Shown: positions 21,571-29,113, numbered from the stretch's first letter. The stretch is DNA of 64,000 nt from Pseudomonadota bacterium (GCA_043798915.1 JAZDOG010000089.1:33158-97157), one strand, 5' to 3'. The notes: generated from the letters alone by a model not told the origin. Numbers and translations: made by a program.

Positions 21571-22827
21571 CTATATGACTTTCAAGACCAGCGCCGTTAT
21601 GTCGTCGCGCGGAGGATCCGGATCGACGAACGCCTGCACCGATTCCACGATGACGTCGCATATCTGGCGCGCGCTTCCCACCAGCGCATCGGAGAGGACC
21701 TCGACGAGCCTCGCCCTTCCGAAGCGCTCCCCGCGGCGATTTGCCGCTTCGGTGATCCCGTCGGTGTAGAGCAGGATGACATCCCCCTTTGAGACGACCA
21801 TCTGCCTCTCGTGGAAGACCCCGCGCGCCTCGAGCCCGATGAGGCAATCGCCCGTCCCTATCTCCTCGAACTGCCCGCCGGCGGCGCGCCAGACGATCGG
21901 AGCGGGATGGCCGGCCGACGTGTACTGGATGACCTGCCGGGAGCGGAGATACTGCAGATAGATCATCGATATGAATTGCTCCGACTGAAAGAGATCGTCG
22001 TAGAGAATCGTGTTGATCCTCTGCACTAGGAGCGAAGGCGAATAGTCCGCGTCCATCTGGGAGCGGATGGCCGCCCGAAACGCGGCCATGATGAGCGCCG
22101 CCCCGATCGAGTGCCCCGACACGTCGGCGACGACGAAGGATGGGCGCTTCGCATACGTGAAGAAGCAGTCGTAGTAATCGCCCCCGACGCGCTCCGCGGT
22201 GATGAGCCGCCCTGCCACCTCCAGCCCCTCGACCTCAAGCGGGGAAGCGGGCAAAAGCCGGTACTGTATCTGACGCGCGATCTCCAGCTGCCCGCGGAGC
22301 TTCTCCGTCGCATTGCGCTCTTCGACGAGGCGGCAGATGTGGAGATAGGCCGCGGCCTGGTTGGCAAGCGTAGTGAGGAGCTGGAGATCATCCTCGGTGA
22401 AGGCGCTTCCGTCGGTCCTGTCGGTGACGTTTATAACGCCCAGGGGCTCCTCGCCCACCTTCATGGGGAAACACGTGACCGGCGCGGAGATGAGGGACTT
22501 CGTCTGATAGCGGTCGCGGCCCGGGCCCATCTCAGACGCCTTGATTTCCGAAACGAGCAGCGGCTCGTGGCTCGCGAAGACCTTGCCCGATATCCCCTCG
22601 CCGACCTTCACGACGGCGTGCTCCATGATCCCGGGCTCCATGCCGCGGGCCGCCGCGATGCGCAGCGCGCCGATTGCGGGATCATAAGTCATGATCGAGG
22701 CCTTCTCGACACCCAGAAGGCGCACCACTGCATCGAGGATCAGCTCGTAGACCTCCCTCGGGTCCTGGGCCCGGACGATCGCCTGGCTTAAACCGTGGAT
22801 CGCATCGATTGTCGCTCTTTCATTCAT
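21571..22827 (-). CDS. GAF-domain PP2C-type serine phosphatase (RsbU/SpoIIE-like) of a partner-switching module.
   Basis: N-terminal GAF domain, C-terminal PP2C domain ('SGHSIGAALIMA', 'LLYTDGITEA'). Overlaps the upstream anti-sigma kinase gene by 4 nt. Confidence 0.8.
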   Translation of the reverse strand: MNERATIDAIHGLSQAIVRAQDPREVYELILDAVVRLLGVEKASIMTYDPAIGALRIAAARGMEPGIMEHAVVKVGEGISGKVFASHEPLLVSEIKASEMGPGRDRYQTKSLISAPVTCFPMKVGEEPLGVINVTDRTDGSAFTEDDLQLLTTLANQAAAYLHICRLVEERNATEKLRGQLEIARQIQYRLLPASPLEVEGLEVAGRLITAERVGGDYYDCFFTYAKRPSFVVADVSGHSIGAALIMAAFRAAIRSQMDADYSPSLLVQRINTILYDDLFQSEQFISMIYLQYLRSRQVIQYTSAGHPAPIVWRAAGGQFEEIGTGDCLIGLEARGVFHERQMVVSKGDVILLYTDGITEAANRRGERFGRARLVEVLSDALVGSARQICDVIVESVQAFVDPDPPRDDITALVLKVI

Positions 22828-23228
22828 AGCTCGTAGACCATCCTCAAAGAATGGCGCCCGTTCTTCATGCGGCTCTCCACCCGTGTCATCAGGCGGTGGA
22901 TGAGGAAGAGGCCCCTGCCATGGCTCACCGGCTCTTCCGGTTCAGACACCACGTGGCGGCCTATGCCGCAACCGGTGTCGACCACCTCGATCGTCATGCC
23001 GGACAAAGACAAGGCAAGCGAGACGCGGATCGGCAACCGCCTCCTGCGGCGGTGGGCGTGGAAGATCGCATTATCGACAGCCTCTATCAAGGCCAAAGTG
23101 CACGCTGTGACGGCCTTTGGAGGCAAGGCCCTGAGCCCCGCGACGCTTACCGCCACAGAGACCCACTGGCGCAAAAGCGCCAGATAGCGGGTGTCGCTCC
23201 TGATCGTGAAGGCGCAGCGAAATGGCAT
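22824..23228 (-). CDS. Anti-sigma regulatory factor, RsbW/SpoIIAB-like GHKL serine kinase.
   Basis: HATPase_c motifs 'EAVDNAIFHA' and 'VVDTGCGI'. 134 aa, the typical size. Confidence 0.75.
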   Translation of the reverse strand: MPFRCAFTIRSDTRYLALLRQWVSVAVSVAGLRALPPKAVTACTLALIEAVDNAIFHAHRRRRRLPIRVSLALSLSGMTIEVVDTGCGIGRHVVSEPEEPVSHGRGLFLIHRLMTRVESRMKNGRHSLRMVYEL

Positions 23229-23240
23229 AGGCGTCTCGCG

Positions 23241-26541: not shown

Positions 26542-27936
26542 TGTCGCGCCGCGCGCCGCAACCTTCCTCTTCTTGATCTTCTCGACGAGCGTCGTCCTGT
26601 TGAGTCTCAAGAGGCCCGCCGCCTTGTTCTTGTTTCCGCCACACATGTCCAGCGCGATCCGGATGAGCTTCGCCTCGAATTCGGCGACCGCCCGCTTGAA
26701 CGACAGACCGCCATCGGGGATCTCCATATCCGGCTCGTCTTTCGACCGGGATTGAGACTTTGCCGCATTGCCTGGAAAACCGGCGGGAAAATCGCCGACG
26801 TCGATCACCTTCCCGTGCTTCAAGACGACAATGCGCTCGACCATGTTCTCCAGCTCCCTCACATTTCCCGGCCAGGGATGAGACATGAAGATTTTGAGCG
26901 CCTCCGGGGTGACGTCGTTCACGACGCGGCCGCCCTTGGCGGCATATTTTTTGATGAAACAATCGAGCAGCAGTGGAATGTCGCTCTTGCGCTCGCGAAG
27001 CGGCGGGATGTGTATCGGAATGACATTGAGCCTGTAGTAGAGATCCTCGCGAAAGCGGTTCTCTTCGACCGCCTTTTCCAGATCCTGGTTCGTGGCGGCG
27101 ATGATCCTGACATCGACCTGGTGCGTGCTGTTTGCGCCCACAGGCTCGAAGCGCTGCTCCTGCAGGACGCGCAGCACCTTCACCTGCAGCTTGAGGGTCA
27201 TGTCGCCGATCTCGTCTAAGAAGATCGATCCGCCATCGGCGGTGTCGAAGCGCCCTGGTTTGGTCGCCACGGCGCCGGTGAACGACCCCTTCACGTGGCC
27301 GAAGAGCTCGCTCTCGAGGAGCTCTTCCGGGATGGCTGCGCAGTTGACGGTGACCAGGGGCTTTTCGCGCCTGGGGCTGTTGTAGTGGATGGCCCGGGCC
27401 ACCAGCTCCTTGCCGGTGCCGCTCTCGCCGGTGATCAGGACGTTGGAATCGGTGTCCGCCACCTTCTCGACCATGTCGAAGACCGCGGCCATCTCGTCGC
27501 TCGTGCCGACGATGTTCTCGAAGCGGTACTTGTCGCGGAGCTGGCTCTTGAGGATCCGGTTCTCCTCCTTGAGCTGGCGGTGCTCGATCGCCGTCGCGAC
27601 GAGCGACGCGATGTCGTCCAGCTCGAAGGGCTTCGTGAGGTAATGATAGGCGCCGGCCTTCATCGCCTCGACCGCCGAGGTGATAGTGCCAAAACCGGTG
27701 AGGACAATGGGAATGATGTCCGGCTGGAGCCTCTTCATGCGCCCGATGAGCTCGATGCCGTCCATCTTGGGCATCACGAGGTCGACGAGCGCCAGATCGA
27801 TCGTATCCCCCTGGACGATCTTGAGCGCGATCTCGCCGTTCTCGGCGGTGACGACGTCGTACTTGAGGCCGGTGAGGAAGCGCTCCAGCGCCTTGCGGAT
27901 GGCGACTTCGTCGTCGACGATCAGAATTCGAGCCAT
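26524..27936 (-). CDS. Sigma-54-dependent response regulator (NtrC family), cognate to the adjacent histidine kinase.
   Basis: Receiver 'ILIVDDEVAIR...LALVDLVMPKMDG...YLTKP'; 'GESGTGKE'; 'GSFTGA'; HTH. Its start overlaps the kinase stop. Confidence 0.9.
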   Translation of the reverse strand: MARILIVDDEVAIRKALERFLTGLKYDVVTAENGEIALKIVQGDTIDLALVDLVMPKMDGIELIGRMKRLQPDIIPIVLTGFGTITSAVEAMKAGAYHYLTKPFELDDIASLVATAIEHRQLKEENRILKSQLRDKYRFENIVGTSDEMAAVFDMVEKVADTDSNVLITGESGTGKELVARAIHYNSPRREKPLVTVNCAAIPEELLESELFGHVKGSFTGAVATKPGRFDTADGGSIFLDEIGDMTLKLQVKVLRVLQEQRFEPVGANSTHQVDVRIIAATNQDLEKAVEENRFREDLYYRLNVIPIHIPPLRERKSDIPLLLDCFIKKYAAKGGRVVNDVTPEALKIFMSHPWPGNVRELENMVERIVVLKHGKVIDVGDFPAGFPGNAAKSQSRSKDEPDMEIPDGGLSFKRAVAEFEAKLIRIALDMCGGNKNKAAGLLRLNRTTLVEKIKKRKVAARGATKPSPL

Positions 27937-27937
27937 G

Positions 27938-29113
27938 TTATCCCCCCTCTGTCGATGCCGGCAAACGTACTACAAACTCGGTTCCGCCGCCCTTCACATC
28001 CTCGCACGATATCTCGCCGCCGTGCTCCTTCACTATTCGATAGCTGATCGAAAGGCCGAGCCCCGTGCCCTTGCCCGGCTCCTTGGTCGTAAAAAATGGA
28101 TCGAAGATGCGATCTCTGTTCTCGGGCGAAATGCCGACGCCGGTGTCGCGGACCCTCACCTCGACGAATCCATCCCCATTGCTGCAGCCGGTCTTCACGG
28201 TGAGGACCCCGCCCTTGGGCATCGCATGGCATGCGTTCGTTATGAGGTTCAAGAAGACCTGCTGCAGGCGGTCGGGAATCCCGACGACCTGCGGGAGTCG
28301 CGCGGCACCGTCGAAGTTGAGCTCGATGTTCATCGACCGGAGCTCTCGCTGCACGAACGGAAAGACCTTCTCCAGGAGGAGATTCAAGTCCACGCCGTGC
28401 CTCTCCCTGTCCTTGGAGACGCGCGAAAAATCCAGGAGGTCGGCGACGATCTTCTTGCACCTGACTGCCGCCTTTTCCATCTCGTCCAAGTCGGCCAGCA
28501 GCGTCTTGTTTCCATGCACGTCGCGCTTCATGAGCTGGGCGAAGGCGAGAATCCCGCCAAGGGGATTGTTGATCTCGTGGGCCACGCCGCCGGCGAGCAT
28601 GCCGATCGCCGCCATCTTCTCCTGCTGGATGACCTCGCGCTGGAGGCGGCGCTCTTCGGTGATGTCGCGGTAGTAGAGGACGGCGGACCCGGCCGCGGCG
28701 GCGCTCATCGGGTAAGCGCTCGTCTCGTAATCCCTGCGGCTTATCTGGCAGCCCAGCACGGAGGTCGTGTGCGCGTCGCGCTTGAGGGCCGCGGGCAAAG
28801 GGCATCCTTCGCACGGCGCCGTGCGCCCGGCGAAGACATCGTGGCACCTCTTGCCGATTATCGTCGCGATGTCCTTGCCGCAGGCCGCGGCGAGGGAGAG
28901 ATTTGCGCGAATTATCTCATAGTCGCGCGAGACGATCTGCACGGGGGATGTGATGGCATCGAAGGTGGACTCCCACATGTACTTGCCGCGGGAGATGATC
29001 CCAACCAGTTCCTCGAGCTTTGCGGCGCGGCCGGAGAGGATTTTGAGCCTCTTGACGAACTCTTCCCGGCTCAAGGATTCAATGGATGGGTCTTTTTTTC
29101 TGGATGAGGCCAT
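27938..29113 (-). CDS. PAS-domain sensor histidine kinase (cytoplasmic).
   Basis: PAS region, H-box 'AHEINNPL', and HATPase 'DTGVGI...GTGLGLSI'. Confidence 0.85.
   Translation of the reverse strand: MASSRKKDPSIESLSREEFVKRLKILSGRAAKLEELVGIISRGKYMWESTFDAITSPVQIVSRDYEIIRANLSLAAACGKDIATIIGKRCHDVFAGRTAPCEGCPLPAALKRDAHTTSVLGCQISRRDYETSAYPMSAAAAGSAVLYYRDITEERRLQREVIQQEKMAAIGMLAGGVAHEINNPLGGILAFAQLMKRDVHGNKTLLADLDEMEKAAVRCKKIVADLLDFSRVSKDRERHGVDLNLLLEKVFPFVQRELRSMNIELNFDGAARLPQVVGIPDRLQQVFLNLITNACHAMPKGGVLTVKTGCSNGDGFVEVRVRDTGVGISPENRDRIFDPFFTTKEPGKGTGLGLSISYRIVKEHGGEISCEDVKGGGTEFVVRLPASTEGG

Follow-up and report, generated by a model that had tools for sequence, protein, structure and literature searches.

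Several sigma-54 activators are switched not by phosphorylation of their own but by a dedicated partner, usually encoded nearby, as in NifL-NifA with GlnK, HrpV-HrpS with HrpG, FleN-FleQ and PspA-PspF. NifL carries a GHKL domain, and HrpV together with HrpG amounts to a partner switch whose target is an activator. For activators that lack a receiver or possess only a pseudo-receiver, the mode of control is known in few cases only. Partner switches proper, such as RsbU/RsbV/RsbW-SigB and SpoIIE/SpoIIAA/SpoIIAB-SigF of Bacillus, combine a STAS protein with a phosphorylatable serine, a GHKL kinase with N, G1 and G2 boxes and a SpoIIE-family PP2C phosphatase, and act on a sigma factor. Outputs other than sigma factors are established as well, and those of SypA, RbaV, HmpV and BtrV form a standing puzzle (PMC8256260). 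A sigma-54 activator beside a partner switch has its precedent in the syp locus of Vibrio fischeri, where no sigma factor is involved and where the sole known job of SypE, a fused kinase-phosphatase, is to set the phosphorylation of the STAS protein SypA (PMC3610818). Here we describe a locus in 64 kb of Pseudomonadota bacterium DNA (the window, that is, the whole stretch that was analysed), in which a complete partner switch stands right behind a seemingly phospho-blind sigma-54 activator, an arrangement that recurs across more than 100 environmental relatives, and we tentatively propose that the output of the switch acts on this activator.

The locus encodes, in the order of the genes, a soluble PAS histidine kinase, three NtrC-class activators (Act1, Act2 and Act3), a STAS protein, an RsbW-like GHKL serine kinase and a PP2C phosphatase with a GAF domain (GAF-PP2C), followed by folC and hemB (Table 1). 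The original prediction, made from the sequence of the window, had judged the receiver of Act3 to be degenerate, and this held after proper alignment to E. coli NtrC: Act3 has H-D-G at positions D10-D11-D12, V at D54, A at T82 and Y at K104, and the phospho-acceptor residues (Asp, Thr and Lys) are lost in Act3 of 17/17 orthologues. Because D54, T82 and K104 are missing in all orthologues examined, we expect that Act3 cannot be phosphorylated. In Pfam, its N-terminal domain matches Response_reg only, and this weakly and in part (32-35 bits). Act3 was modelled with AlphaFold2 from an alignment with 68 homologues (69 sequences in all); the model, whose mean predicted local distance difference test (pLDDT) score is 85.7, predicts a (beta-alpha)5 fold for this domain, with alpha5 running on into a long linker helix; NtrX, NtrC1, NtrC4, FleQ and LuxO are its top Foldseek matches, with 1NY5 and 3DZD among the best. 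In the AAA+ domain, the Walker A and B motifs, the GAYTGA loop and the Arg finger show little or no variation; of the loop residues in the 69 aligned sequences, G219, T222 and A224 are invariant and Y221 and G223 nearly invariant. Among close relatives the Fis-type helix-turn-helix (HTH; HTH_8, 41 bits) is 76-86% identical, and the N-terminal domain, at 39-59%, is the fastest-evolving activator domain. Judged by these features, Act3 is a phospho-blind but active DNA-binding sigma-54 activator with a pseudo-receiver throughout the lineage. An activator that is active while its receiver is dead would therefore need some other input.

Two groups of described activators come close to this arrangement. 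With Aquifex NtrC1 and NtrC4 (DctD class), Act1, Act2 and Act3 share the succession of receiver, helical linker, AAA+ domain and HTH, and alpha5 and the linker helix are continuous in the Act3 model; unlike in that class, however, the phosphorylation-driven release of a receiver dimer could not operate in Act3, which is without D54, T82 and K104. The FleQ/FlrA systems, with FleS-FleR/FlrB-FlrC, likewise cluster a PAS kinase with two activators, one of the NtrC class that can be phosphorylated and another in which the receiver-like domain has no phospho-acceptor, and the Act3 model superposes on FleQ. Here, in contrast, there are no flagellar genes, no FleN and no transcriptional hierarchy, the cluster being free of sigma-54 promoters; a Pfam search of the cluster found no MinD/FleN-like gene. 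Placing Act3 in the FleQ family was rejected, since the FleQ domain (PF06490) was not detected at E-values up to 1.

A scan for relatives of Act3, with one genome per species, yielded 22 orthologous loci of 50-73% identity, beyond which the next matches, at 44% identity or less, were unrelated activators. All 22 loci come from uncultured metagenome-assembled genomes (MAGs) labelled Deltaproteobacteria, Myxococcales, Bdellovibrio, Nitrospira, Pseudomonadota or simply "bacterium", and more than 120 database clusters contain Act3 at an identity of at least 56%. The order kinase, Act1, Act2, Act3, STAS, RsbW-like/PP2C and FolC is found in every sufficiently long contig among the 22 MAG loci and two metagenome contigs. 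The STAS gene follows Act3 in 20/20 loci whose contig continues (with a manC-like gene between them in four), the kinase precedes Act1 in 15/15 and FolC follows PP2C in 17/17. The cassette is kept down to identities of about 50% for Act3, 32% for STAS and 35% for PP2C, and STAS homologues of 50-55% identity that were found independently sit in the same cassette. Not conserved are the upstream synteny, hemB, which occurs only in some relatives, and the adjacency of polA, a conserved neighbour in closer relatives that is lost from this position in the distant group. Several loci depart from the common layout. In L014-L020, GAF-PP2C carries the RsbW-like domain as an N-terminal fusion, so that HATPase_c_2, GAF and SpoIIE domains form one protein of 560 residues; in L014-L017, an inserted manC-like gene, which encodes a mannose-1-phosphate guanylyltransferase with NTP_transferase and ManC beta-helix domains, separates Act3 from STAS; and in L021 a 1.6-kb insert lies ahead of folC. 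The insertions fall at the edges or between modules, and none removes a module. From these comparisons, the block from kinase to folC is evidently inherited as a unit across an environmental lineage.

As judged by their motifs, the genes of the partner switch are catalytically intact. The STAS protein scores 81.7 against TIGR00377, exceeding the cut-off of 53.45, and the serine in its FIDSMGLG motif, which aligns to the phosphorylation site of SpoIIAA (1TH8/1TID), is kept as the putative phospho-acceptor in all 19 full-length orthologues. The RsbW-like protein matches HATPase_c_2 (PF13581) with an E-value of 3e-18 and has kept its N, G1 and G2 boxes in every orthologue. GAF-PP2C matches SpoIIE (PF07228) with an E-value of 1e-46 and contains the motifs GGDYYD, ADVSGH, YTDG and DD; the metal-binding motifs of the PP2C family are present. 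In the STAS serine, the kinase boxes and the phosphatase family, the three proteins thus resemble the Bacillus switches, from which they differ by the GAF sensor, by the absence of a sigma factor from the operon and the window and by the RsbW-like protein, which reaches 21-29 bits against NCBIfam equivalog cut-offs of 135-155 for RsbW and SpoIIAB. Within the block, close relatives differ least in STAS (66-82% identity) and most in the RsbW-like protein (34-60%). Anti-sigma kinases such as SpoIIAB show the reverse pattern. With STAS best and the RsbW-like protein least conserved, this points to STAS as the output of the switch.

These data also bear on the possibility that the switch is a conventional one, in which the RsbW-like protein would sequester an unlinked factor of the sigma-70 family (or an anti-sigma factor such as FlgM) and STAS would free it, the activators being merely co-expressed. 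The original prediction had stressed that no sigma factor gene is nearby. Indeed, no sigma-factor domain was found in any main open reading frame (ORF) of the 64-kb window, but as an argument this proved uninformative: for 16 other STAS/RsbW/GAF-PP2C loci, with 98 neighbours in total, the families matched by at least two proteins did not include Sigma70. Since these related loci likewise have no neighbouring sigma gene, its absence here says little, and unlinked targets would be normal; the chlamydial RsbW, for instance, targets the unlinked sigma-66 (PMC11619594). The canonical motifs in all three switch proteins agree with a conventional switch too. Against it, the RsbW-like protein is the least conserved of the block, lies far under the RsbW/SpoIIAB cut-offs, gave no match in a sequence search of the PDB and is fused to the phosphatase in distant relatives, and the strict co-inheritance of the switch with the activators would be left unexplained. 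We regard a conventional switch as somewhat unlikely.

The best explanation of the operon is, in our opinion, that of a lineage-specific signalling unit with two sensory inputs. In a first module, the kinase, with its Cys-motif PAS domain probably a redox or metal sensor, would phosphorylate the receivers of Act1 and Act2, which would then form AAA+ rings and switch on sigma-54 promoters located in other parts of the genome. In a second module, a ligand bound to the GAF domain would control the PP2C phosphatase and thereby the dephosphorylation of STAS, the RsbW-like kinase would re-phosphorylate STAS, and the unphosphorylated form would represent the output of the switch. STAS, or the RsbW-like protein freed by it, might then serve as co-activator or anti-activator of Act3 ring assembly. 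This last step is modelled by analogy on the control of NifA by NifL/GlnK and of HrpS by HrpV/HrpG; neither these anti-activators nor FleN and PspA are homologous to STAS or RsbW-like proteins, and the likeness is one of proposed logic only. We narrowly favour Act3 as the target, as the original prediction suggested, because it is the sole activator that lacks an input and the operon encodes just one other sensor, the switch. The basis for this choice is adjacency, and an action of the switch output on Act3 seems to us possible rather than probable. The more specific proposal, that the phosphorylation state of STAS, set by the GAF-sensing PP2C and the RsbW-like kinase, decides whether Act3 assembles and activates sigma-54 promoters, so that Ser/Thr partner switching would feed into sigma-54 transcription without any sigma/anti-sigma pair, is one that we consider somewhat unlikely.

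In favour of Act3 as the target, the block from kinase to PP2C is whole in all orthologous loci while upstream synteny is lost, and there are precedents for its control: where an activator has no working sensor, an anti-activator encoded with it often takes over, as FleN does for FleQ (PMC10723142) and NifL for NifA (PMC12998190). The conservation of STAS and the fusion of kinase and phosphatase in distant relatives, which yields an enzyme of the SypE kind, also fit this view. Several observations weigh against it. The N-terminal domain of Act3 (39-59% identity, against 66-82% for STAS) is a poor fit for a STAS docking site, although an action on Act3 stays compatible with its fast evolution, since known anti-activators usually bind the AAA+ domain. 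The housekeeping gene folC is inherited with the block and spaced as closely as the regulators are, so that adjacency and order alone are no proof of shared function. In a wider sample, a metagenome scan with the fused phosphatase that returned 80 loci from other lineages with relatives of 26-36% identity, a true sigma-54 activator lies within 10 kb of the GAF-PP2C gene in 3/80 loci; two further matches turned out to be ComM/Mg-chelatase false positives, and a general association of GAF-PP2C with sigma-54 activators was rejected. Finally, in syp, the one system of this composition that has been studied, the switch acts downstream of SypG-driven transcription (PMC3610818), and in our literature searches no paper turned up that describes an enhancer-binding protein as the target of a partner switch.

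The conservation of folC, together with that of polA in closer relatives, and the general lack of association between GAF-PP2C and sigma-54 activators elsewhere would suit a view without any coupling, according to which two independent regulatory modules and folC share one unbroken ancestral transcription unit. The gene order, however, outlasts the loss of upstream synteny, of hemB and of polA adjacency, the insertions, whether of manC or of the 1.6 kb before folC in L021, never take out a module, and the regulators are better conserved than PolA, so that we think a mere juxtaposition unlikely.

A further possibility follows from the likeness to syp, which lies in the domain make-up: in both cases, one locus brings together a sensor kinase (SypF), a sigma-54 response regulator (SypG), an RsbW-like kinase and PP2C phosphatase (SypE) and a STAS protein with the serine (SypA), and in L014-L020 kinase and phosphatase form a single polypeptide, as in SypE (PMC3610818). 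The activators might thus drive a remote regulon, for example for surface polysaccharide or biofilm, while unphosphorylated STAS would act after transcription on its products, resulting in a two-level control. Such a reading is backed by the correspondence of the parts listed above, with SypE as a bifunctional enzyme (PMC3610818, PMC4517449), by the fused kinase-GAF-phosphatase of distant relatives and by the control of polysaccharide or motility through several non-canonical STAS outputs (PMC8256260). The manC-like gene of L014-L017 fits in as well, as a weak hint at a polysaccharide-related output. There are differences, however. The cassette stands outside any polysaccharide locus, such genes being absent from the window cluster and from most relatives; the regulatory domain is GAF rather than the central receiver of SypE, and phosphotransfer from the histidine kinase would therefore not reach the switch; the cassette has three activators, one of them with a pseudo-receiver, instead of one; and in the window the RsbW-like kinase and the phosphatase are separate genes with a 4-nucleotide (nt) overlap. 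Moreover, this view names no more definite target here than is the case for SypA. On balance, we believe that a two-level control of this kind is improbable.

Every component of the cassette belongs to a well-known family, yet a literature search returned no description of a fixed seven-gene set in which a kinase and two canonical activators are combined with a pseudo-receiver activator and a switch driven by a GAF domain, and which is kept throughout a broad uncultured lineage. If the switch did act on Act3, this would add a new output class to partner switching and a new input class to sigma-54 activators. The cassette offers a concrete candidate target and many orthologous pairs for co-evolution analysis or complex prediction; should the link not be real, it would still be a tidy marker operon of an uncultured lineage.

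The first module has a more conventional appearance. AtoS is the top NCBIfam match of the kinase, but at 232 bits against a cut-off of 646 the protein is not an AtoS equivalog. Its PAS domain contains a C-x11/12-C-x2-C motif (KRCHDVFAGRTAPCEGCP) at residues ~88-106 (window 28700-28850) that is kept in all 15 orthologues and suggests sensing of a metal, an Fe-S cluster or the thiol redox state. Act1 is a canonical NtrC-class protein, with receiver, sigma-54 AAA+ domain with GSFTGA and Fis-type HTH (HTH_8, 43 bits), and its D11, D12, D54, T82 and K104 are all present in the window and in 17/17 orthologues, as aligned to E. coli NtrC. Act2, also of the NtrC class, combines an intact window receiver and GSFTGA with a divergent C-terminal HTH, which scores 13 bits (E 0.088) against the HTH_8 (PF02954) cut-off of 22. 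The alignment thus agrees with the earlier claim that both receivers are intact in the window. The phospho-acceptor residues of Act2 are present in most orthologues; in L007, L018 and L020 the receiver is degenerate, with loss of the acidic pocket, Thr and Lys, D54 being lost in L018 only. In L008, Act2 (8570-9984) is broken into two ORFs by a frameshift or an assembly error.

Act1, Act2 and Act3 match Sigma54_activat (PF00158) with E-values of 1e-70 to 1e-75, and their best NCBIfam matches, at 388-479 bits against cut-offs of 559-800, do not qualify them as the named equivalogs NtrC, AtoC, ZraR or LuxO. They are 39-43% identical to one another and no nearer to each other than to a fourth activator of the window (52216-53598). 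On this evidence, a recent tandem duplication or a HrpR/HrpS-like pair was rejected, and we take the three to be old co-transcribed paralogues, as far as their sequences can tell. The original prediction had also spoken of activators in series, forming a cascade, and this part did not survive. In the window, no sigma-54 promoter with up to two mismatches was found in or upstream of the cluster; in the 22 orthologous loci, none with up to one mismatch was found except for a few sites far outside the cassette (L015, L018, L020 and L021); and it is a sigma-70-like promoter candidate that precedes the kinase. With no sigma-54 promoter at the cluster, a transcriptional cascade of Act1, Act2 and Act3 was dropped, and their targets should lie elsewhere.

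The nine closely packed minus-strand genes extend from 29113 down to 19369. Gene calls were checked against Pfam and NCBIfam, which back each of them and agree with the gene order given in the original prediction; two of the window proteins, MFH0800170.1 (Act3) and MFH0800169.1, are found in NCBI. The accompanying statement that all gaps are 25 nt or less, or overlapping, is true of every junction but one: the gaps measure 1 nt (kinase/Act1), 19 nt (Act2/Act3), 25 nt (Act3/STAS), 12 nt (STAS/RsbW-like), -4 nt (RsbW-like/PP2C, where the PP2C start overlaps the RsbW-like stop), 8 nt (PP2C/FolC) and 4 nt (FolC/HemB), but 86 nt between Act1 and Act2. The 173-nt spacer 5' of the kinase contains a terminator-like hairpin (29252-29265), which follows the upstream gene of 1538 codons, and the sigma-70-like promoter candidate, the probable start of the operon. 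As the hairpin and promoter lie upstream and a sequence scan revealed no convincing minus-strand terminator inside the block, a single operon from kinase to hemB seems the simplest reading. The spacer between Act1 and Act2 holds two perfect hairpins with 9-10-bp stems and 3-nt loops, the second of which adjoins the Act2 ribosome-binding site and, read on the plus strand, is followed by a T-run and resembles an antisense terminator. Neither has a second copy in the window, and both are missing from the same spacer in eight orthologous loci; this palindromic element is hence genome-specific and was rejected as part of the conserved system.

Table 1. Genes and sequence elements of the operon in the window, and positions of the manC-like insert in the orthologous loci that carry it.
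Feature	Coordinates	Strand	Domains and remarks
Histidine kinase	27938-29113	-	PAS_4, HisKA, HATPase_c; 391 residues
Act1	26524-27936	-	Response_reg, Sigma54_activat, HTH_8
Act2	25013-26437	-	Response_reg, Sigma54_activat; HTH_8 sub-threshold
Act3	23611-24993	-	Weak partial Response_reg, Sigma54_activat, HTH_8; MFH0800170.1
STAS protein	23241-23585	-	Pfam STAS; 114 residues, single domain
RsbW-like GHKL serine kinase	22824-23228	-	HATPase_c_2; 134 residues
GAF-PP2C phosphatase, SpoIIE family	21571-22827	-	Pfam GAF and SpoIIE
folC	20354-21562	-	TIGR01499, 357 bits; true start ~21562
hemB	19369-20349	-	Pfam ALAD; true start ~20349
Sigma-70-like promoter candidate	29218-29245	-	TTAACA-16-TATTTT; consensus scan only
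Two perfect hairpins, Act1/Act2 spacer	26447-26467 and 26516-26538	not assigned	
manC-like insert, L014	7168-8364		
manC-like insert, L015	11197-12294		
manC-like insert, L016	~1965-3264		
manC-like insert, L017	4152-5327		

The surroundings of the operon in the window comprise housekeeping genes (polA, alaS, efp, RNase Y, ymdB, RNase R and 6S RNA) as well as an Hdr/NiFe-hydrogenase cluster with its own activator, the fourth one mentioned above. Directly upstream of the operon, a minus-strand ORF of 1538 residues (29287-33903) has no Pfam domain, gives only a sub-threshold AgmX/PglI C-terminal match in NCBIfam and is not conserved upstream of the cassette in relatives. Between hemB and polA, a stretch with a GC content of 0.505, compared with ~0.6 in its flanks (18101-19368), encodes an AAA ATPase (ATPase_2/AAA_14) with a winged-helix C-terminus (MCM_C). 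Since no counterpart of this gene was detected in the orthologous loci, where polA comes after folC or hemB, the stretch looks like an insertion. The 6S RNA (37519-37737, minus strand; Rfam RF00013, 97 bits) is located just upstream of a 5-formyltetrahydrofolate cyclo-ligase gene (36428-37072), which is the classical ssrS-ygfA pairing. Defence-type genes are present on the plus strand at 2014-2751, for an AbiEii nucleotidyltransferase toxin, and at 56688-58091, for a Schlafen/AlbA_2 protein with HATPase_c_4 and a Fic-like C-terminal domain.

Two perfect sigma-54 promoters occur in the window at a distance from the cassette. The first, on the plus strand at 15052 (TGGCACGCATTTTGCT), is followed by a Shine-Dalgarno sequence and an ORF of 73 residues (15107-15328) that is convergent with polA and encodes a hydrophobic segment and an acidic tail, with no Pfam match; this small gene is a candidate for control by one of the activators. 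In close orthologous loci, no similar sigma-54 site was found. The second promoter (53631-53616, minus strand) lies upstream of the gene for the fourth activator, a canonical response regulator, after which come genes for Hdr-like CCG/Fe-S proteins, a NuoF-like flavoprotein, a NiFe hydrogenase and its maturation protease, so that the region 42144-53631 (minus strand) looks like a sigma-54-controlled hydrogen/heterodisulfide module.

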